Part shown: positions 3,051 through 15,850 of the stretch, one piece after another
Layout of the letters: the number at the start of each line of letters is the position of its first letter
How positions within the stretch are numbered: position 1 is the stretch's first letter
Assembly (NCBI GenBank): GCA_016432445.1
Contig: CP066689.1
Location: 420,001-452,000 of the forward strand
Length of the DNA stretch: 32,000 nucleotides
Direction: 5' to 3'
From: Candidatus Saccharimonadota bacterium
GTDB taxonomy: Bacteria; Patescibacteriota; Microgenomatia; UBA1406; GWC2-37-13
Position numbers and translations under genes: made by a program
Notes under the pieces: model-generated
Told to the model about the DNA's origin: nothing
The model's input: only the letters and a program-made list of their open reading frames with translations
Databases searched by the model: none

Positions 3051-4074
3051 GTTTAAGGCAGGTATCTTCATCTTCTTTCTCAAAAAGGCAGAGGACAAAT
3101 TGATGAATTACATCAAAATTTTCGGCTGGGATGAGAACATATTTGTTATCGTAATCAGCGTAGTTGGGGACAATAAATAAATCTTCGGGTAAAAAGACAT
3201 TTCTTTGCGAATAATTCTTGCTAAATACGATGTCTTTAAACATTATGGCGACTTCTTGATTGGAAACATCGCGGTTAACCAAAGAATCAGCCTTTTGATA
3301 AAGTTTTTTTATTTTTTCTATATCATTGTTTTTTACAATCTCAATTACTTTGGATTTAATGGCTGAAATGACAAGTTGTTGCCTTCTGCTTCTGGCAAAG
3401 TCACTGCCTTCGTCGCCTTGGGCGTTGCGCGAGCGGGTAAATTTTAAAGCTGTCTTTCCATCCATAAACATAGTGCCTTCATTAAAGGTAAGCGTTTCAT
3501 AACGGCATTTATATTCTGTGTCACCGCCGCATAAGTCATTTTCTTTTCCTTCAATCGGAAATTTTTTATCAATAAGAGCGTGTTCAACATTAACATCAAT
3601 GCCGCCAAGATAGTCAATAAGCTCTTTGAATTTATTAAAGTTAATGACGGCTGAGTATTGTATAGATATTCCTAAAATGGCTCCCACTTCGGCTTTGGCA
3701 AGTTTAAGACCGCCATCTTCCTGTTTAGCTTCGCCATAAGCATAGGCAGTATTAATTTTATCTTTTAAAGTATCGCTCCAGATATCTCTTGGTATACCAA
3801 TAGTTGTTAAATGATTTGTTTTAAAATTGTATCGAAAAACTAATATTGAGTCAGAAAGATTGGGTCCATCATGCTGACCTCCGGCAATACCAAGAACTAA
3901 AACATTCACTGAGTCTTCAACTTTCTTTAGAGAGTTATCAGAAAGAAGAATTTTAATAGGAGAAATGCTTAAATCAGTAGTAAGAAACTCATAATACGGT
4001 TTTATAATGAAATAAACAGAAACAATGATTGCCAAAACAAAAAAAATTAAAATGATTTTTATTTTTTTTAGCAT
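3025..4074 (-). CDS. LytR-CpsA-Psr (LCP) family cell-envelope phosphotransferase
   Basis: N-terminal TM helix. LCP hallmarks are present: VLVLGIAGG...SDSILV, IPRDIW, LGISIQYSAVINFNKFKELIDYLGGIDVNV, FTRSRN...SDFARSRRQQ. Confidence 0.85.
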   Translation of the reverse strand: MLKKIKIILIFFVLAIIVSVYFIIKPYYEFLTTDLSISPIKILLSDNSLKKVEDSVNVLVLGIAGGQHDGPNLSDSILVFRYNFKTNHLTTIGIPRDIWSDTLKDKINTAYAYGEAKQEDGGLKLAKAEVGAILGISIQYSAVINFNKFKELIDYLGGIDVNVEHALIDKKFPIEGKENDLCGGDTEYKCRYETLTFNEGTMFMDGKTALKFTRSRNAQGDEGSDFARSRRQQLVISAIKSKVIEIVKNNDIEKIKKLYQKADSLVNRDVSNQEVAIMFKDIVFSKNYSQRNVFLPEDLFIVPNYADYDNKYVLIPAENFDVIHQFVLCLFEKEDEDTCLKLNKVEKKE

Positions 4075-8891: not shown

Positions 8892-10355
8892 TTATTTAAT
8901 TTTCAAATCATCCAATATCTCAGTTCTGGGGTCAAAGACTCGGATAAGGTGATTGTTGGTATCGGCAATAAAAAGCAGATCATTTTTGGCAACAATATCA
9001 TTGGGTTCATAAAGGGCAAGCTGTTCACATTTTTTATCTCCGATCATACAAATATCAGTGCCTTTTTCACGGCCGACTAGAGTTTCAATATCTTTTGTTT
9101 TTAAATTCACAACCCGGATGGCATTATTATAAGTATCGGCAATATATAGAAATTTACTGTTAGCAAAAACTCCCAATGGATGTTGAAGCAACGCTTTATT
9201 AAAAGGGCCGTCTTTATGCCCGAAGGTAAATAAGCCCTTACCGATGAGCGTAGCAACCTTTTCTTCATCAATATTTATTTTTCTTAAAGATGAACTTTCG
9301 CTATCAGTGAAATAAATATCATTGCCGTAAATACTTAAGCCGCTGGGTTGAGCTAGTTCGGCGTCAGACCAGTGGTTATCAACTAAGCCTTCATAGCCGT
9401 TTCCGGCAAAAAGTTCCATTACGTTGTTTTCAAATCCGTAGCGCCAGATTTGATGGGAGCCGGCCATAGCAATGTAAAAAAATTTATCGAAGTAATCTAT
9501 ATCCCAAGGAGAACTTAGGGCAATCTCCAAGGCTTTTCCGCTTATTGGTTGTCCAAAAGGAGCTTGAATGCCAGTACCGGCAATCGTCGACACTTTTTTA
9601 GTTTTAAGATCAACTTTTTTAAGCAAATGATTATCAGTGTCGCAGACATAAAGATTATTTCCTAAAGGATATATTCCTTGAGGGTGATTGAAATTGCCTT
9701 TAATAATATTTTTGATCTTAACTTGGGCGGGAGATTTGTAATCACAAATTAGAATGCGGTTGTGGTTGGAATCTGAGATAAAAAGAGTGTCGCCTTTTTG
9801 ATCAAACTCAATTTTTCCAGGAAAAGATAAAGTTTGTTTAGATTTCTTTTTTTTAAGTTCTAGGCGTAAAGGTTTATCAGCCAATGTACCTTCAACTTCT
9901 CCTTCTTTCAGCAGAATCTCAATTTCGTTTTCAAGGTGACCGCGTTGTCCTTCACCAGAGACTTGTTCGCGCACATAACCTTCAGGATCAATAAGAATCA
10001 TTGTCGGCCAGGCATTGACAGCATAGGCATTCCAGATATCATGGTTGTTATCGGCTATTACCGGGTGAGTAATCTCATATCTTTCTATAGCCGATTGAAG
10101 ATGATCAAGAACAATCTCATTTTCAAATTTAGGTGAGTGAGCTCCGATGACAACCACAGGTTTGCCTTTAAATTTTTCTTCAATAGATTTTAGATCAGGT
10201 AGAACATGAATACAGTTAATGCAGCAGTAAGTCCAGAAATCCAAAAGAACAACATAACCTTTTAATTTTTTCATGCTTAATTTTCTTTTAGAATTAAGCC
10301 AGGTTAAATCTGCTGGAAATTCTGGAGCTCTAACTGCTTGAGTAAATATTGGCAT
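8892..10355 (-). CDS. thioredoxin-like domain + NHL-repeat beta-propeller protein (NHLRC2-like)
   Basis: N-terminal redoxin motif LLDFWTYCCINCIHVLPDL. This is followed by repeated NHL-like blades (FNHPQGI, LSSPWDI, LAQPSGL, LQHPLGV, LYEPNDI). Confidence 0.85.
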   Translation of the reverse strand: MPIFTQAVRAPEFPADLTWLNSKRKLSMKKLKGYVVLLDFWTYCCINCIHVLPDLKSIEEKFKGKPVVVIGAHSPKFENEIVLDHLQSAIERYEITHPVIADNNHDIWNAYAVNAWPTMILIDPEGYVREQVSGEGQRGHLENEIEILLKEGEVEGTLADKPLRLELKKKKSKQTLSFPGKIEFDQKGDTLFISDSNHNRILICDYKSPAQVKIKNIIKGNFNHPQGIYPLGNNLYVCDTDNHLLKKVDLKTKKVSTIAGTGIQAPFGQPISGKALEIALSSPWDIDYFDKFFYIAMAGSHQIWRYGFENNVMELFAGNGYEGLVDNHWSDAELAQPSGLSIYGNDIYFTDSESSSLRKINIDEEKVATLIGKGLFTFGHKDGPFNKALLQHPLGVFANSKFLYIADTYNNAIRVVNLKTKDIETLVGREKGTDICMIGDKKCEQLALYEPNDIVAKNDLLFIADTNNHLIRVFDPRTEILDDLKIK

Positions 10356-10392
10356 ATTACCCCATGATAAGAGAGTAAGGTAAGATTTCTGT

Positions 10393-10460
10393 AAAAAAAA
10401 AGCGCCGGTCGGGTAAGAAAGTCAGAAGAGTCTGACAAACTTGCCTTTCCGGCGTTTGAC
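10393..10460 (-). terminator. composite three-helix intrinsic terminator of cassette 3
   Basis: Minus-strand RNA reads GUCAAA-CGCCGG-AAA-GGCAAG-UUU-GUCAGA-CUCU-UCUGAC-UUU-CUUACC-CGA-CCGGCG-C-U9. The plus-strand A-run is at 10393-10401. Confidence 0.8.
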
Positions 10461-10467
10461 CTTTCAG

Positions 10468-10653
10468 TCATTCAGTTGGTCGAGGCTTGATGTTTTTGCG
10501 AGGCACCATCAGGCCTTTCCCAATGCCCGTTCTCACGTAGCAATCAGTGCTCCAATAAAATGCGACGGTGCCTTCGATGGGTTTAGGTATCTTGCCCTCG
10601 CTGTCTGGCTCAGGCTGGACAATGACAGCTGTCCCGACATCAATATGTGGCAA
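10468..10653 (-). CDS. 61-aa beta-rich small protein (S4), uncharacterised
   Basis: TTG start at 10653 with AGAGGTG 6 nt upstream. It shares the pattern G-T-x-V ... I-E-G-T ... C-x-V ... I-K-P with the 62- and 65-aa ORFs. Confidence 0.55.
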   Translation of the reverse strand: MPHIDVGTAVIVQPEPDSEGKIPKPIEGTVAFYWSTDCYVRTGIGKGLMVPRKNIKPRPTE

Positions 10654-10729
10654 TAGTTCACCTCTTTTCTATCCTCTAAGGACAAAATTTGATTGCTGAC
10701 CAAGGTGGAGAGGGCGGTCTCCCACGCAC

Positions 10730-11149
10730 TTACCTCAGAAGTCCAGCATCCTCTAAGATGGCTCGAGCCTGCTCGACGACATTCATGCATATTTCACAGT
10801 GATCTAGGTGAGTTGCAATCGAGTTATACTTTCCACCTTGCTTTCGATCACCGGTATCGTTCTTGGCGAAGTCAACCAAGTGAATCGGTAAGGGACAGAA
10901 ATCCCTTTTAAACATGAGTCTATCATGCAAGGCACTGTAGAATGTTTGTGTGCAACTTTCACATTGCTCTAAGACCTTCCTAAGGTTGGGAGGTAGGAGC
11001 AAGCTAAGCGGCAGTTTGCGGAGCTCTCGCAGTCTTAGTTCTATGGTAGGTTCCAGCCCTGTCCAGATGAGATCAAAAAGCTCCATGGGTACCCGGCTAG
11101 CCAGATATTTGGCTAAGTCGTGGTGGTCACAATCGGTAGTGGGTTCCAT
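10730..11149 (-). CDS. 139-aa helical Cys/His-rich protein with C-terminal HxxxCxxC motif, uncharacterised
   Basis: Longest ORF of cassette 3. CxxC at residues 63-66 and HLDHCEIC at residues 114-121 (10787-10810). Its ATG is 17 nt from the leader SD, and a 15-codon uORF occupies the optimal position. Confidence 0.6.
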   Translation of the reverse strand: MEPTTDCDHHDLAKYLASRVPMELFDLIWTGLEPTIELRLRELRKLPLSLLLPPNLRKVLEQCESCTQTFYSALHDRLMFKRDFCPLPIHLVDFAKNDTGDRKQGGKYNSIATHLDHCEICMNVVEQARAILEDAGLLR

Positions 11150-11308
11150 TCGGATATCATTCCTCTCTCCTTACTCCGCCCTTAGCAAGGAATACAAAGA
11201 CAAGAGTTTATCTTCATATTCCTTGCCAGGACAGATACATAACAACTGAATTTTCAAAGTACTATAAGCAAAAGATAGGCATGCGAAAGCCTAGGTTTAT
11301 TTGATATG
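11150..11308 (-). promoter_or_regulatory. conserved structured 5' leader, copy A (cassette 3)
   Basis: P1 11276-11280/11289-11293. Invariant motif ATTCAGTTGTT (complement of 11241-11251). P2 11185-11194/11217-11226 and P3 11196-11200/11211-11215. SD at 11167-11172. Confidence 0.65.
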
Positions 11309-11314
11309 GGAAGA

Positions 11315-11356
11315 ATTTTATCAGAAATAAAGGGCAAAATCAAACTACTATGGGAC
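11315..11356 (-). promoter_or_regulatory. sigma70-type promoter of cassette 3 with conserved upstream box
   Basis: Minus strand reads CCCATAGTAGTTTGATTT. The -35 TTGATT is at 11338-11343, followed by a 17-nt spacer and -10 TAAAAT at 11315-11320. Confidence 0.7.
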
Positions 11357-11376
11357 AGCCTTGTAACTTTGGAGAT

Positions 11377-11448
11377 AAAAAATAGCGCTCGGAAGGAAAG
11401 AAAGTCATGAAAGTCATGACAGACCTGCCTTACGAGCGCTCGTTTGAG
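11377..11448 (-). terminator. composite three-helix intrinsic terminator of cassette 2
   Basis: Outer stem AGCGCUCG/CGAGCGCU (11433-11440 with 11384-11391). Inner hairpin GUCAUG-ACUUU-CAUGAC, followed by A-U6. Confidence 0.75.
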
Positions 11449-11454
11449 ATGATC

Positions 11455-11643
11455 TCAGCTGTTTGCCGGGAAAGGCTTGATGGTAGCGTTTAAGCAAACT
11501 GTGGGTGTACCGTTGACTACGACGAGGCACCAAGTGGAGTTGTATGGCTCTCGGTAGATGCCATGTACAGGTCTGTTGGAACCGTGGAGTTGTGCTGTGA
11601 CGTGATCTCCGCGCTGAACGCCTTGTCTAGGATGATTTGCCAT
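11455..11643 (-). CDS. 62-aa beta-rich small protein (S3), uncharacterised
   Basis: ATG at 11643 is preceded by GAGGAGG. The longer 80-aa track ORF would overlap the upstream gene. The ATG at 11655 is a weaker alternative. Confidence 0.55.
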   Translation of the reverse strand: MANHPRQGVQRGDHVTAQLHGSNRPVHGIYREPYNSTWCLVVVNGTPTVCLNATIKPFPANS

Positions 11644-11662
11644 TTTCCTCCTCATTTCCTTC

Positions 11663-11860
11663 TTAGTTGACTGCGCTTGCGATAACGGCGGTTTCAATTC
11701 CCTTGACTAAACAGGTATGATTATTGCCGTAATCATCGCGAACGATGCAGATTCCGTCATCGTAGTAATCCGTCAGTGTACCTTCTACGGTCTCCAAGGT
11801 AGGACGGTGAATGGCGAGTATTGCCTTCACTCGCGTACCTAGTGGAATTTCATCTAACAT
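11663..11860 (-). CDS. 65-aa beta-rich small protein (S2), uncharacterised
   Basis: ATG at 11860 with AAGGAGG 6 nt upstream. The pattern GTRV...VEGTLTDYYDDGICIVRDDYGNNHTCLV suggests a small beta-barrel. Confidence 0.6.
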   Translation of the reverse strand: MLDEIPLGTRVKAILAIHRPTLETVEGTLTDYYDDGICIVRDDYGNNHTCLVKGIETAVIASAVN

Positions 11861-11903
11861 TTGAATCCTCCTTTCTAGTCTTTTTGAGTTGATTTTTCGT
11901 TGG

Positions 11904-12170
11904 CTAGCCGATCAGTTGATGCCGGCGCTGGCGAAGCCGGAACTCTGATGCATAGTACGGTAGATAGAAGCCGCTGATGTGACCGATGCAAAATACTACA
12001 AAGGCGAATAGATACGGCCATCCATCGGGAACAAGGCTTGGGCCGATCCATAAGATCACGATTCCGGCGAGGAATAATACCGGTTTTGTATTCGGTGTAG
12101 GTTCGATGAATTCCATGCCGAGTCTTACCCCGAAAGTAAACCATACTGCCAGGAACAGTGCAAAAGACAT
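11904..12170 (-). CDS. 88-aa three-TM small membrane protein, paralogue 2
   Basis: ATG at 12170 with AAGGAGG 7 nt upstream. Three hydrophobic segments and a basic C-terminal tail. About 70% identical by eye to the 12463-12723 product. Confidence 0.75.
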   Translation of the reverse strand: MSFALFLAVWFTFGVRLGMEFIEPTPNTKPVLFLAGIVILWIGPSLVPDGWPYLFAFVVFCIGHISGFYLPYYASEFRLRQRRHQLIG

Positions 12171-12334
12171 CTCGTTTCCTCCTTTCTCCTTACTCTATCC
12201 TTAGCAAGGAGTATAAGGAGAAAAGTTTATCCTCATGCTTCTTACTAAGGTAAAAGTAAGGTAACAACTGAATATGTTAAAGTGCATTGGATAAGACGAC
12301 AGATAGACAGCAAAAGCCTAAACTCATCTTACTC
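12171..12334 (-). promoter_or_regulatory. conserved structured 5' leader, copy B (cassette 2)
   Basis: P1 12304-12308/12316-12320. Motif is the complement of 12263-12273. P2 12199-12208/12241-12250 and P3 12215-12219/12230-12234. An 8-nt anti-SD (12214-12221) is exactly complementary to the SD (12185-12192). Confidence 0.65.
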
Positions 12335-12340
12335 AGACGC

Positions 12341-12382
12341 ATTTTATCAAAATGGAGAATTTAAATCAAACTACTATGGGGT
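12341..12382 (-). promoter_or_regulatory. sigma70-type promoter of cassette 2 with conserved upstream box
   Basis: -35 TTGATT at 12364-12369, 17-nt spacer, -10 TAAAAT at 12341-12346. The same 18-nt box CCCATAGTAGTTTGATTT is present. Confidence 0.7.
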
Positions 12383-12385
12383 TAT

Positions 12386-12455
12386 AAAAAAAGCGCCCGT
12401 AGAAGTAAGTGCCGTGAAAGTCACGGTAAACTTACTCTTTCGAGCGCATTTGACC
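12386..12455 (-). terminator. composite three-helix intrinsic terminator of cassette 1
   Basis: Minus-strand RNA reads GUCAAAU-GCGCUCG-AAA-GAGUAAG-UUU-ACCGUGA-CUU-UCACGG-C-ACUUACUUC-UA-CGGGCGC-U7. Confidence 0.8.
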
Positions 12456-12462
12456 TTTCGGT

Positions 12463-12723
12463 TCATTCAGTTGTTTGCTGCCGGCGAAGCCGAAGCTCTG
12501 TTGCGTAGTACGGCAGGTAGAAGCCACATATGGTGCCGATAATGAATGTTGCTATTGCAAAAAGATACGGCCATCCGTTGGGAACGAGACTTTTTCCGAC
12601 CACGAGCATTACTATTCCGGCAAGTAAAAGTACAGGTTTCATCTTCGGTGTAGGTTCGATGACTTCCATGCCAAGTCTTACCCCGAAAGCAAACCATACT
12701 GTCAGGAACAGTATAAAAGACAT
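12463..12723 (-). CDS. 86-aa three-TM small membrane protein, paralogue 1
   Basis: ATG at 12723 with AAGGAGG 7 nt upstream. It is a paralogue of the 11904-12170 product (MSF.LFL.VWF.FGVRLGME.IEPTP..KPVL.LAGIV...SLVP.GWPYLFA...GFYLPYYA.E.RLR). Confidence 0.75.
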   Translation of the reverse strand: MSFILFLTVWFAFGVRLGMEVIEPTPKMKPVLLLAGIVMLVVGKSLVPNGWPYLFAIATFIIGTICGFYLPYYATELRLRRQQTTE

Positions 12724-12738
12724 CGTTTTTCCTCCTTT

Positions 12739-13002
12739 CTACCCTTTGCAGGTAAGTATTGAGATTTTGAGATTCTCGTAGTCGCCGCGTGTCAAGGTTA
12801 ATAGGTCTTCTGCTGTCGGTAAGGCGATGCGATCAAGATCCTTCAAGTGTTTCTTGGTTCCGTCCAAAAACCTGACGTCTATATCGCACCGGTTTATTCC
12901 TTCAATTACGCAGATTCGGCCTCCGTGAATAATAATTGCTCCGGCTGGACCCTTAAGATTGGTTGTTAACACTTGGACATACATATGGTTCATTTTCTTC
13001 AT
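12739..13002 (-). CDS. 87-aa small soluble protein (S1), uncharacterised
   Basis: ATG at 13002 lies 7 nt after the leader SD (13010-13015). The 121-aa track ORF would read through the conserved leader. Confidence 0.6.
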   Translation of the reverse strand: MKKMNHMYVQVLTTNLKGPAGAIIIHGGRICVIEGINRCDIDVRFLDGTKKHLKDLDRIALPTAEDLLTLTRGDYENLKISILTCKG

Positions 13003-13155
13003 TCTCTTTCTCCTTACTTCACTCAAGCAAGGGATATAAGGATAAAGATTATCCTCGTATTTCTTACTTGAGACGAAGCAAAAAGTAAACAACTGAATTT
13101 TCAAAGTACTACAAATTAAAAATAGGTATGCAAAAACCTAAGTTTGTTTTGTTAA
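13003..13155 (-). promoter_or_regulatory. conserved structured 5' leader, copy C (cassette 1)
   Basis: P1 13123-13127/13136-13140. Motif is the complement of 13087-13098. P2 13022-13031/13063-13072 and P3 13039-13043/13051-13055. SD at 13010-13015. Confidence 0.65.
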
Positions 13156-13161
13156 TGAGCA

Positions 13162-13203
13162 ATTATACTAAATTTTTAGCCTTAAATCAAACTACTATGG
13201 GAC
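13162..13203 (-). promoter_or_regulatory. sigma70-type promoter of cassette 1 with conserved upstream box
   Basis: -35 TTGATT at 13185-13190, 17-nt spacer, -10 TATAAT at 13162-13167. The same 18-nt box is present. Confidence 0.75.
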
Positions 13204-13266
13204 AATGATCTGAGGTTTTTAGGTGGATAAACGATTAAATGTGTGGTAAAATATATTATTCTTAAT

Positions 13267-13297
13267 ACTTCACGGTTTAAGGCGTGAAGTTTTTTTT
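13267..13297 (+). terminator. canonical intrinsic terminator or attenuator immediately upstream of typA
   Basis: 8-bp stem ACTTCACG (13267-13274) / CGTGAAGT (13283-13290), 8-nt loop, then T7 (13291-13297). It sits 17 nt before the typA ATG. Confidence 0.6.
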
Positions 13298-13313
13298 GAG
13301 TCATAAAACACCT

Positions 13314-15140
13314 ATGGAAATAAGAAATATTGCTATTATTGCCCACGTTGACCATGGTAAAACTACCTTGGTTGATGGATTACTCAAACAAACCCACACT
13401 TTCCGTGATAATCAGAAGGAAATGTCTGAAACTTTGATCATGGATTCCAATGATTTGGAACGGGAAAAGGGCATTACGATATTGGCCAAAAATACTTCAG
13501 TTTTCTACCATGATCAGAAAATTAACATTATCGATACTCCTGGGCACGCAGATTTTGGCGGCGAGGTGGAACGGGTGATTAATATGGCCAGCGGCGCTTT
13601 GCTTTTGGTCGATGCGGCCGAAGGCCCTTTGCCTCAAACCAGATTTGTCTTAAAAAAAGCTTTAGAAGCTCATTTAAAAGTAATCTTAATCATCAACAAA
13701 ATTGATAAACGCGATGCCAGACCTCAAGAAGTTCTTCATGAAGTGGAAAATCTTTTTCTTGAATTAGCTCATGATGAAAACGCTTTGCATTTCACAACTC
13801 TTTACGCTGTAGGCCGAGATGGTAAGGCTTTTTACACTTTGCCTGAGAAATATGATGCATCTATGCCTGGCGATTTATCTCCTTTATTTGAAACAGTTGT
13901 TAAAGAAATTCCTAATGTTGCCGTGAATGATGATAAACCTTTTCAGATGCTTATTTCAACTTTGGATTATGATAATTATGTAGGCAAACTTTGTATTGGT
14001 AAAGTTTCAGCGGGAGTATTGTCTAAAGGTCAAACTGTGTCTTTAGTTGATGAGAATCAGGTTTTAGGAAATCATAAAGTGATGAAACTTTATACCAGCC
14101 GTGGTTTGCAAAGAGAAGAAGTGGATAAGGTAACTTCAGGAGACATTGTGGCGATTGCAGGTATTCCAGAACTTACTATTGGTCAAACTGTAACTGATCC
14201 TCAAAATCCTATAAGTTTACCAAAAATTGATATTGAAGAACCGACAATCAAAGTTACCATTGGTCCAAATACTAGTCCGCTTTCAGGTAGGGAAGGAAAA
14301 TACTCAACTTCAAGACAGATTAAAGAAAGATTAATGAAAGAAAAAGAAACAAACTTAGGTTTAAAGATTAAAGAGGATCCGGAAGGAGTAAGTTTTATAG
14401 TCAGTGGTCGGGGAGAGCTTCATCTGGCTGTTCTTATTGAAACCATGAGACGGGAAGGATTTGAAATGCAAATTTCAAAACCACAGGTTATTTATAAAGA
14501 TATTGATGGGCATGTTTGCGAGCCATATGAGGAAGTAACTATTGATGTTCATCAGGATTATATGGGACCAATTCAGGAGGAAATGGGAAAAAGACGCGCC
14601 ATTATGCAGGATATGACAACTGATCACAATGGCAATGCCCGTTTAATTTACAAAATCTCCAGCCAAAACTTATTGGGTATCCGCAATGTAATGTTAACCA
14701 AAACGAGAGGAACAGCTATTATGAGTACTTATTTTTTAGGATACGAGCCAAAAGGAGTCAAAATGGAATCTTTAAGAAATGGTGCTTTGGTAGCAGTTAA
14801 ATCGGGACAAGCCTTGTCTTATGGTTTACAGAATGCCCAAGATAGAGGAACACTTTTTGTGGGAGTTGGAGTTGAGGTTTATGAAGGAATGGTTGTGGGA
14901 GTGGCCGCCCGAGATATGGATGTTGAAGTTAATATCTGTAAAGCAAAACAACTGACTAATAACCGTTCTTCAGGAGAAGGTGTCAATATATCAGTGGCGC
15001 CTCCTACAATTCTTTCCCTTGAGCAGTGTTTAGACTTTATTAATGAAGATGAACTTCTTGAAGTTACTCCTTTAAATTTAAGGATAAGAAAAAAATTCTT
15101 AAACACAACTCAGCGAAGGGTTTATAATAGAAATAATTAA
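13314..15140 (+). CDS. typA: translational GTPase TypA/BipA
   Basis: [33 protein letters not shown] and NKIDK motifs, with the BipA-type C-terminal domain. ATG at 13314 is preferred to the GTG at 13284, which lies inside the hairpin. Confidence 0.9.
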
Positions 15141-15181: not shown

Positions 15182-15850
15182 ATGAAAAGTGAAGTAATAT
15201 TGGCAGGAATTGTTTTACTGTTTTTTGTTGGCGGATTATTTCTTTTAACCAAATCAAACATGACTAAAAAGTTTGAAACTGCTTCTCAAAAAAAAGTAAC
15301 TTCTCCGACAGCCAGTTTAGCTCAAAAGCCTGTTGAAACTTTTGCCGCTTTACCTGAGAGTTTCTTTGATAAATCGAAATCTTATACTGCAGTATTAAAA
15401 ACAACCGAAGGTGACATTACAATTCAGTTAAATGCTCAAGAGACTCCTAAAACAGTAGAAAATTTTGTAACACTATCGCAAAAGAATTTTTATAACAATA
15501 CTATTTTTCATAGAGTAATCAAAGGATTTATGATTCAGGGCGGTGACCCGAAAGGTGATGGCACAGGAGGACCAGGTTACCGTTTTGCTGATGAACCTTT
15601 TGAAGGAGAATACACAAGAGGTATAGTAGCTATGGCTAATGCCGGACCAAACACCAATGGAAGTCAGTTTTTCATTATGCATCAAGATAATCCTTTGCCT
15701 AAAAATTATGTTATCTTCGGGAAAGTAATTGAAGGCATAGAAGTTGTTGATAAGATTGCCGAAGCTCCGGTTGAGTCAAGCTCAAGCGGCGAGCCATCAA
15801 AACCGATAAATCCAGTAACAGTTCAATCTGTTGAGATTATTGAAAAATAA
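15182..15850 (+). CDS. membrane-anchored cyclophilin-type peptidyl-prolyl cis-trans isomerase
   Basis: N-terminal TM helix. Motifs FHRVIKGFMIQGGDP, GGPGY and MANAGPNTNGSQFFI. Confidence 0.9.
   Translation: MKSEVILAGIVLLFFVGGLFLLTKSNMTKKFETASQKKVTSPTASLAQKPVETFAALPESFFDKSKSYTAVLKTTEGDITIQLNAQETPKTVENFVTLSQKNFYNNTIFHRVIKGFMIQGGDPKGDGTGGPGYRFADEPFEGEYTRGIVAMANAGPNTNGSQFFIMHQDNPLPKNYVIFGKVIEGIEVVDKIAEAPVESSSSGEPSKPINPVTVQSVEIIEK

Follow-up and report, generated by a model that had tools for sequence, protein, structure and literature searches.

A putative foreign islet of three paralogous, moron-like transcription units in a Candidatus Roizmanbacteria genome

A phage moron, in the sense of Hendrix and colleagues, is reportedly an autonomous promoter-gene-terminator unit of atypical composition. 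The early 'host-takeover' clusters of the phages SPO1 and T4 carry many tiny orphan open reading frames (ORFs) with strong promoters and Shine-Dalgarno (SD) sites, arranged in several short operons. As for the messenger itself, the hok mRNA is closed by 5'-3' pairing in a tac/fbi stem (PMC9841398), and the S. aureus icaR mRNA is reportedly closed by 5'-3' pairing as well (PMC3868564). Here we describe a 2.8-kb islet found at positions 10393-13205 (minus strand) of a 32-kb stretch of contig CP066689.1, hereafter the window, that belongs to a tiny-genome bacterium of the candidate phyla radiation (CPR), a Candidatus Roizmanbacteria metagenome-assembled genome. The islet consists of exactly three whole paralogous units placed head to tail. 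We consider it moderately probable that it is a horizontally acquired set of exactly three paralogous, self-contained, moron-like transcription units; the islet itself is real, and no known family explains it.

Every unit begins with a copy of the 18-mer box CCCATAGTAGTTTGATTT, of which the window has exactly three (minus strand, at 13201, 12380 and 11354); no further site was found when up to three mismatches were allowed, and three matches were reached in 0 of 100 shuffles. Each box holds a TTGATT hexamer (the -35), followed after a 17-nt spacer by TATAAT or TAAAAT, with an extended TG in two copies. Box 1 (CCCATAGTAGTTTGATTT, 13184..13201, minus strand) has the -35 TTGATT at 13190-13185 and the -10 TATAAT at 13167-13162. 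Box 2 (12363..12380, minus) has the -35 at 12369-12364 and a TAAAAT -10 with TG at 12346-12341; for box 3 (11337..11354, minus) the respective positions are 11343-11338 and 11320-11315, again with TAAAAT and TG. A plus-strand promoter inside the box, with TACTAT as the -10, was considered and rejected, having neither a -35 nor a TG. A consensus scan, which weak promoters could escape, detected no plus-strand promoter-like site within 10393-13205.

Besides the box, the units share their leaders, which are about 155 nt long and 71-80% identical between units. Each leader has a small 5' hairpin, then a single-stranded stretch with the 11-mer ATTCAGTTGTT (11/11 identical in the three units), and then a hairpin of 28-33 bp that ends at or beside the SD site. 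In leader 1 (13003..13155, minus) the 5' hairpin lies at about 13140-13123, the 11-mer, here ATTCAGTTGTT(T), at 13098-13087, and the long hairpin at 13085-13010, where it pairs with AAGGAG. In leader 2 (12171..12334, minus) positions 12273-12263 hold the 11-mer ATTCAGTTGTT and the long hairpin spans about 12261-12185; leader 3 (11150..11308, minus) has them at 11251-11241 and 11235-11175, respectively. Leader 3 also has a 15-codon upstream ORF starting at 11161.

We found that the predicted leader hairpins are unusually stable (-37 to -40 kcal/mol, z-scores from -4.7 to -7.2) and that their pairing is conserved. In the three-sequence alignment 91.7% of cells were paired, compared to 44-50% when the partners were slid. 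Compensatory double changes were present in nine leader pairs, compared to 0-2 in the slid alignments, and nine were reached by only 4 of 500 shuffles. The covariance models of Rfam 15 gave no match in the window at the gathering score, and in the islet only chance-level matches (E>=1.1).

The 3' modules are homologous across the units too, each having one small hairpin followed by a long composite hairpin and a T-run. Terminator 1 is at 12388..12445 (minus, z-score -5.6), terminator 2 at 11377..11440 (minus, z-score -7.2), and terminator 3, which ends in T9 and forms the left end of the islet, at 10393..10454 (minus, z-score -4.6). A first-pass annotation of the window, made from the sequence alone, had already proposed three head-to-tail units of promoter, leader, cargo and terminator, with an identical 18-nt box, a 17-nt spacer and a TAAAAT or TATAAT -10, and homologous leaders of about 150 nt. 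The unit-to-unit homology, the exact count of boxes and the leader identities agree with all of this, as they do with the homology of the terminators, which are built of a small and a long composite hairpin with a T-run and not of three helices as was then suggested.

Composition and translation signals set the islet apart from its surroundings. Within 10501-13000 the GC content of 500-nt windows was 0.428-0.486, compared to 0.25-0.41 in most other windows and about 0.35 around the islet. The GC content at third codon positions (GC3) of the seven islet ORFs was 0.46-0.55, with a mean of 0.507, while the 24 host ORFs had a mean of 0.267, a standard deviation of 0.04 and a maximum of 0.366, so that every islet gene is about 5-7 standard deviations above the host mean. 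An SD motif, AAGGAG(G), AGGAGG or GAGG(T), was present upstream of 7/7 islet ORFs, with anti-SD duplex energies from -7.1 to -11.9 kcal/mol, and a motif of this type was present in 0/24 host ORFs of the 32-kb window. Both contrasts, in composition and in ribosome-binding sites, had been noticed at the first pass and are borne out by these figures.

Because GC content, GC3 and translation signals differ sharply from those of the host, we conclude that the islet DNA is evidently foreign to this genome and was acquired horizontally. The donor was most likely an SD-using, phage- or plasmid-like uncharacterised element with a GC3 of about 50%. We also observed that the host genes at 15182, 17010, 20696, 24100 and 26406 have a TATAAT-like hexamer about 7-15 nt before the ATG. 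Such a pattern suggests leaderless or SD-independent initiation in the Roizmanbacteria host; a literature search on SD usage in CPR bacteria gave nothing usable.

A further feature of the units is a predicted pairing of the two ends of each transcript. In every unit the final codons of the last ORF are complementary to the invariant leader 11-mer ATTCAGTTGTT. In cassette 1 the 3' partner AAACAACTGAAT (12465..12479, minus) overlaps the last codons and the stop of the 86-aa ORF M86 and is complementary 12/12 to leader 1; the predicted clamp is a 12-bp helix with a pairing probability of about 1.0 in both the minimum free energy and the centroid structures of the whole transcript, and was matched in 2 of 2000 shuffles. 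In cassette 3 the partner CAACTGAAT (10470..10478, minus) overlaps the last codons and the stop of the 61-aa ORF S61, with a helix of 9-10 bp, a probability of about 0.5 and matches in 36 of 2000 shuffles. In cassette 2 the partner AACAGCTGAG (11454..11463, minus) pairs 10/10 only if two G-U pairs are allowed, and the predicted pairing is weak. Significance was evaluated by a longest-helix statistic on shuffles, as RNAduplex was uninformative on long segments.

The changes in cassette 2 are of A to G opposite U, which favours a reading at the RNA level over one at the DNA level. The proteins M86 and S61 are unrelated and still share the ending ...ACTGAATGA, which falls within the common 3' module.

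A second locus was reached through the first gene of cassette 3, which codes for a 139-aa Cys/His-rich protein (10730..11149, minus). An exhaustive HMMER search of 1.84 billion representatives retrieved two distant, full-length homologues, P0010 (E 2e-10) and P0011 (E 3e-5), and all three members of this family, hereafter Z, have the invariant residues C7, H9, C63, C66, C85, H90, H114, C118 and C121. P0010 is encoded on a 3.3-kb contig, L050, of about 52% GC with SD-led genes and with no nucleotide similarity to the islet.

L050 is laid out as a TTGACT-17-TATACT promoter, small 5' hairpins, the 12-mer AATCTGCGAACA, a hairpin of about 50 bp, an SD site and cargo. The hairpin stands directly before the SD site. 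A repeat of its 3' arm precedes the Z homologue, and the latter is the first gene downstream of the hairpin, matching the position in cassette 3. Beyond the stop codon, at a distance of 4 nt, begins the exact complement of the 12-mer, TGTTCGCAGATT, and the unit is closed by a long terminator hairpin. For this unit (unit B) the predicted clamp has 12 bp, a pairing probability of about 1.0 and 0 matches in 2000 shuffles. The same transcript architecture, joined with a rare protein family and with different clamp sequences in two elements, is the best evidence that the architecture is functional.

The promoter region of L050, from the -10 to the start, is repeated about 1.4 kb downstream. We observed that TACTATGGGAC, at the -10/start site of L050, reads as the reverse complement of GTCCCATAGTA, a stretch taken from boxes 1 and 3 and including two flanking bases (L050 copies at 1672-1685 and 3099-3112, the second reading TACTATAGG). 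This link is weak: a shared motif of this length was matched in 10 of 500 shuffles, the comparison was made post hoc, and the motif has opposite orientations with respect to the genes. It may travel together with the Z family. Heptanucleotide repeats (CTGTAGN / NCTACAG) make up the arms of the L050 leader hairpin, in arrays at 2-30, 1821-1849 and 1869-1897; they resemble heptad operator arrays, but they sit within the transcribed leader.

With respect to the sequence of the Z protein itself, its C-terminal H-x3-C-x2-C (H114, C118, C121), with a C85/H90 ligand 24-29 residues upstream, resembles the zinc site of the zinc-binding anti-sigma (ZAS) factors. The RsrA model TIGR03988 touches exactly this ZAS-like stretch, at 17.1 bits compared to a cut-off of 62.5 and in one of the three members, while Pfam (zf-HC2 included) gave nothing for the family at E<=1. 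The structural model is all-helical with a pLDDT of 66, and the protein had no sequence or fold match in the PDB. There is no sigma factor among the seven islet ORFs. We regard this helical Cys/His-rich protein as a candidate regulator.

The remaining cargo consists of smaller proteins. The products of unit 1 have 87 and 86 aa, of unit 2 88, 65 and 62 aa, and of unit 3 139 and 61 aa, the sizes reported at the first pass. M86 (86 aa, 12463..12723, minus) has hydrophobic segments at residues 1-19, 27-48 and 51-71 and a basic C-terminal tail, and its paralogue M88 (88 aa, 11904..12170, minus) likewise has three predicted transmembrane (TM) segments. The two show 70% amino-acid and about 79% nucleotide identity, with a synonymous divergence (dS) of 0.59. 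The ratio of non-synonymous to synonymous divergence (dN/dS) was 0.31 in the ORF frame compared to 0.90 and 1.89 in the other frames, and the differences by codon position numbered 17, 10 and 29. Given dN/dS, the codon-position bias and the SD sites upstream of 7/7 ORFs, the islet ORFs are, by all these measures, evidently true protein-coding genes.

M86 and M88 are putative 3-TM inner-membrane proteins; their three hydrophobic segments and charged C-terminal tail (RLRRQ or RLRQRR) are also seen in holins, but are a generic property. Neither has a holin-family match in Pfam or PHROGs, there is no lysin in the islet, and among 5.8 billion proteins M86 and M88 had no homologues besides each other.

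Of the soluble proteins, S87 (87 aa, first gene of cassette 1, 12739..13002, minus) is an orphan. S65 (65 aa, 11663..11860, minus; QQG44738.1) had no homologue among the same 5.8 billion proteins and was modelled as an SH3/Tudor-like four-strand barrel (AlphaFold AF2 on an alignment with S61 and S62, pLDDT 80.6). The model aligns with Tudor/SH3 domains and with many uncharacterised phage proteins of 50-70 aa at TM-scores of 0.6-0.7; no match in the structure search had E<=0.001, hence the resemblance is at fold level only. S62 (62 aa, 11455..11643, minus) aligns weakly with S65 and S61 (30% identity, MAFFT), and S61 (61 aa, 10468..10653, minus), which has a TTG start and a GAGGTG SD site, aligns weakly with S65. 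Within a nine-protein set, phmmer E-values among S65, S62, S61 and possibly S87 were 0.014-0.3, with 0.014 for S61 and S65. These values and the model are suggestive of S65, S62 and S61, and possibly S87, being related mini-barrels.

None of the seven proteins had a usable match in Pfam, PHROGs, PADLOC or NCBIfam, in line with the first-pass remark that none could be assigned to a named family. The seven were then called unrecognised, which stands, but they are not seven kinds: a 3-TM pair, three weakly similar small proteins (65, 62 and 61 aa), the 87-aa protein that is possibly related to these three, and one Cys/His protein make three or four kinds. A role in toxin/immunity, envelope stress or phage interaction had been offered as a speculation as well; nothing positive was found for it, PADLOC and PHROGs being negative and one cassette having no membrane protein.

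Searches for further islets were carried out with each of the shared elements. The exact box gave 1 match in IMG/VR, 17 in GTDB genomes and 21 in metagenomes, all of them single, with about 17 expected by chance per 596 Gb, and none of the matches in the three collections was accompanied by leader homology. The metagenome search with the box, which had been proposed at the first pass as a way to find other cargo, therefore gave chance-level matches only. The leader motif combined with the SD pattern had 14 chance matches in IMG/VR without extended homology, and the L050 hairpin arm had no matches. A distant-mode blastn of the islet DNA against phages and plasmids returned nothing, and no sequence relatives of the islet were found in 50,697 phage genomes or IMG/VR.

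Naturally, a misassembly had to be considered, a concern raised with the first description of the islet. We found the islet 100% identical in per-run assemblies of at least ten runs (SRR12113383-432), with both junctions spanned several times and in several runs. It was present in all 13 redoxin contigs and in all 9 typA contigs with enough flank, and the 13 contigs had a single orientation, a single number of units and no empty site. As independent, fully identical assemblies span both junctions, a chimeric assembly is unlikely. The runs have consecutive accessions and apparently come from one project, so a sporadic chimera is excluded and a population-wide one is not.

Public annotation of the locus is sparse. 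Between redoxin (QQG44737) and TypA (QQG44739) the only gene annotated at NCBI is the 65-aa ORF (QQG44738.1), and the gene calls on long contigs (L019, L053, L056) have this ORF only, to which those in Logan add the 139-aa ORF. Six islet ORFs were called on short contigs (L023, L024, L057). The TTG-start 61-aa ORF was absent from every collection checked. The sparseness arises because callers trained on composition skip most islet ORFs.

In the mechanism that we propose, each unit would yield its own mRNA from a sigma-70-type promoter, and the three transcripts would be co-regulated; the box would be where a regulator, or else RNA polymerase, makes contact in all units. The single-stranded leader 11-mer would pair with the last codons of the last ORF and close the mRNA into a loop, with the big hairpin on or beside the SD site of the looped molecule. 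Loop closure would stabilise the message and would gate either its translation or RNase III processing, as in the hok or icaR mRNAs. The role of the islet would be of an accessory conflict type, such as superinfection exclusion, immunity or phage 'takeover', a suggestion taken from the gene style only; that the membrane proteins and the barrels act in any such conflict is speculative.

The common leader, the covariation in its hairpin and the invariance of the box make co-regulation of the three cassettes plausible. Of the 'co-regulated, horizontally acquired' system of the first-pass annotation, then, the acquisition is upheld by composition, GC3 and translation signals, and co-regulation is kept as plausible. 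The 'swapped cargo' fared similarly. The cargo is variable, but swapping is not required, since duplication with differential gene loss explains it equally well: duplication of an ancestral unit, differential loss and fusion of ORFs onto a shared 3' module could have produced the present units as well as swapping.

Several observations weigh against the moron-like, acquired islet as we describe it. Box, leader and proteins gave nothing beyond chance in viral, genome and metagenome collections, and no phage, plasmid or recombinase gene is in or near the islet. The predicted clamp of cassette 2 is weak (10 bp with two G-U pairs, probability 0.03, 157 of 2000 shuffles), and the class of cassettes rests on two loci. 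The predicted pairing of the SD site also varies: unit 1 has it within the stem, unit 2 in an alternative pairing, and in unit 3 it is unpaired. What stays constant is therefore the leader hairpin, perhaps a stabiliser of the 5' end or a substrate for an RNase III-type enzyme. Finally, the paralogues M86 and M88 are old (dS 0.59); the array may have pre-existed in the donor or may equally have arisen from a single insert that was duplicated in situ and is only partly ameliorated.

Tandem paralogous copies are typical of type I loci. An unlikely alternative is that the units are toxin-type modules, with 3-TM membrane toxins or holin-like effectors curbed at the mRNA level (as in hok/Sok or AapA/IsoA) and the barrels as partners or immunity proteins. 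It would account for small proteins with three TM segments and a basic tail, for the tandem paralogous copies, and for a predicted 5'-3' fold-back with a hairpin at the SD site, as in the hok mRNA (PMC9841398). The predicted probabilities of the fold-back are about 1.0 for transcript 1, about 0.5 for transcript 3 and 0.03 for transcript 2, and the SD site is paired in unit 1 only. Against this alternative, the same design of the mRNA is seen without a membrane protein in cassette 3 and in L050 unit B, M86 and M88 are 86-88 aa long with three TM segments and not single helices of less than 60 aa, the consensus scan found no antisense promoter in the islet, and PADLOC and PHROGs were negative. 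Rather less credit goes to a DNA-level explanation, in which the box or the 11-nt inverted repeats would be sites for a recombinase acting in trans, with integron-like insertion of one unit at a time, or with inversion of the cargo with respect to its promoter; we judge it quite improbable. The integral number of units, the non-unit DNA of at most 22 nt and 38 nt at the two ends, the box invariant exactly at unit starts and the inverted repeats flanking the cargo would all agree with it, as would the ORF stop codons inside the shared 3' module, given that stop codons are often inside attC sites. What speaks for RNA instead is that the cassette 2 repeat is kept only as an RNA pairing (A to G opposite U) and that the unrelated clamp sequence of L050 excludes a shared recombinase site; besides, there is no recombinase within +/-10 kb, each unit has its own promoter, the terminator-box spacers differ (5 vs about 27 nt), and 13 contigs have one orientation and one copy number.

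The two other explanations deny that there was a transfer, or that there is an islet. Were this native DNA, a fast-evolving lineage-specific cluster with a composition made odd by selection, then the lack of mobility genes and target duplication, the likeness of the islet promoters to host -10 elements and the age of the paralogues (dS 0.59) would fit. Conversely, a GC3 of about 5-7 standard deviations above the host mean in every gene, a completely different mode of translation initiation and protein relatives found only on GC-richer, SD-using contigs make it very improbable. It is scarcely credible that the islet is an artefact, be it of chimeric assembly, of contamination or of spurious ORFs in non-coding DNA: the composition does change abruptly at both edges, and NCBI and the long-contig gene caller do find only 1-2 ORFs, but both junctions are spanned by identical assemblies made run by run, and dN/dS, codon-position bias and 7/7 SD sites point to genes. 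The moron-like acquired islet remains the reading that we prefer.

We also make a more general suggestion, tentative and on balance rather doubtful, that the islet and L050 represent an undescribed family of self-contained closed-loop expression cassettes, perhaps mobile per unit, and that the Z proteins may bind the CCCATAGTA / TACTATGGG promoter motif. Such a cassette would be defined by a promoter box, a closed-loop mRNA and the rare, putatively zinc-binding Z-protein family. In the mRNA a single-stranded 5' clamp and a leader hairpin of 30-50 bp would precede the cargo; a second clamp, placed at the stop codon, and a long terminator hairpin would follow it. The relatives of the Z protein are encoded on GC-richer, SD-using contigs.

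The flanks of the islet deserve a separate description. The redoxin/NHL gene (8892-10355, minus) and typA (ATG at 13314, plus) had been called divergent host genes; this is correct for typA alone, the redoxin/NHL gene being co-directional with the cassettes. At most 22 nt lie between the typA -35 and box 1, and 38 nt between the T-run of terminator 3 and the redoxin ATG. No further copy of any islet module and no tRNA were found in the window, no target duplication at the islet, and, on called genes within +/-10 kb, no Pfam domain of an integrase, transposase or recombinase, nor any phage Pfam domain. The earlier statement that integrase, transposase, adjacent tRNA and clear target duplication are missing is upheld.

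Upstream of typA there is a promoter-like TGGATA-17-TAAAAT at 13224-13252 (plus) and a terminator-like hairpin with T8 at 13267-13298, just 5' of the ATG at 13314. Judged by these elements, the typA leader (13224-13313, plus) looks like a transcription attenuator, in a genome of otherwise leaderless-looking genes. On the other side, positions 10356-10392 (minus) hold a TATCAT 8 nt before the redoxin ATG, without a convincing -35; a redoxin promoter overlapping terminator 3, with TTTACA as the -35, was dropped because 20 nt would separate this hexamer from TATCAT. Islet sequences, or read-through from the islet, may contribute to redoxin expression. The nearest relatives of the redoxin/NHL protein are 54% identical and are spread over Patescibacteria, Peregrinibacteria, Thaumarchaeota and others; their genes stand beside different genes and are not syntenic with the islet site. 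Horizontal transfer may thus have had a part in the past of the redoxin/NHL gene, too.

Six of the seven real islet genes are missing from public annotation, and gene callers trained on composition hide such islets; the seven genes have essentially no relatives among 5.8 billion proteins. If the islet and L050 do represent a family of closed-loop cassettes, these would be a new route by which foreign genes import transcription, mRNA-stability and translation signals into hosts that initiate differently. A host that shows no SD use in the 32 kb of the window, and that keeps intact a recently acquired gene set led by SD sites throughout, is a natural experiment on whether foreign translation signals can work there. 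The layout of 5'-3' clamp and leader hairpin recurs with unrelated sequence, a rare protein family being the sole link, which hints at a possibly reusable design for stable, gated expression, brought along by an uncharacterised mobile element; its significance would be broader if the closed-loop design proves widespread.

In comparison with known systems, the islet is like an integron array, and especially a cluster of attC sites lacking integrases (CALIN), in having head-to-tail units, variable cargo, a structured 3' element that holds stop codons, and no recombinase nearby, as is the case for CALINs. It differs in that the islet cassettes have their own promoter and terminator, the boundary is an 18-nt box that holds the -35, the 3' modules lack (by eye) attC R''/R' cores with GTTRRRY/RYYYAAC ends, and there is no integrase domain within +/-10 kb and no attI. 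The takeover clusters of phages are approached in gene style, and many uncharacterised phage proteins are free-standing mini-proteins of SH3-like fold; unlike those clusters, the islet has no phage context and no relatives in the 50,697 phage genomes or IMG/VR. In the ZAS anti-sigma factors (RsrA) the motif is N-terminal, whereas in the 139-aa protein it is C-terminal and accompanied by four or five extra conserved Cys/His residues, in an islet without a sigma-factor gene. Of the defining features tested for type I toxin-antitoxin systems, ZAS factors, holins and integron cassettes, the islet lacks at least one in each case.

With the hok and icaR mRNAs the islet transcripts share a leader segment complementary to the 3' end and a stable structure at or near the SD site, with control of stability and translation as the predicted consequence. 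They differ from these mRNAs in having no antisense RNA, in a predicted pairing via the last codons and not via a long 3' untranslated region or an anti-SD motif, in a polycistronic cargo that is not only a toxin, and in a clamp that is a prediction from sequence. The moron is matched by a predicted sigma-70-type promoter and factor-independent terminator of each unit's own, by the deviant composition and by the small accessory genes. On the other hand, the islet lies between the housekeeping genes typA and redoxin/NHL of a CPR bacterium and not in a (pro)phage, and it is made of three tandem paralogous units, with several genes each, in which the box is invariant and the structured leader, some 155 nt long, is shared. 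The phage moron is the closest concept for the islet, and the hok and icaR mRNAs are the closest analogues for its transcripts.

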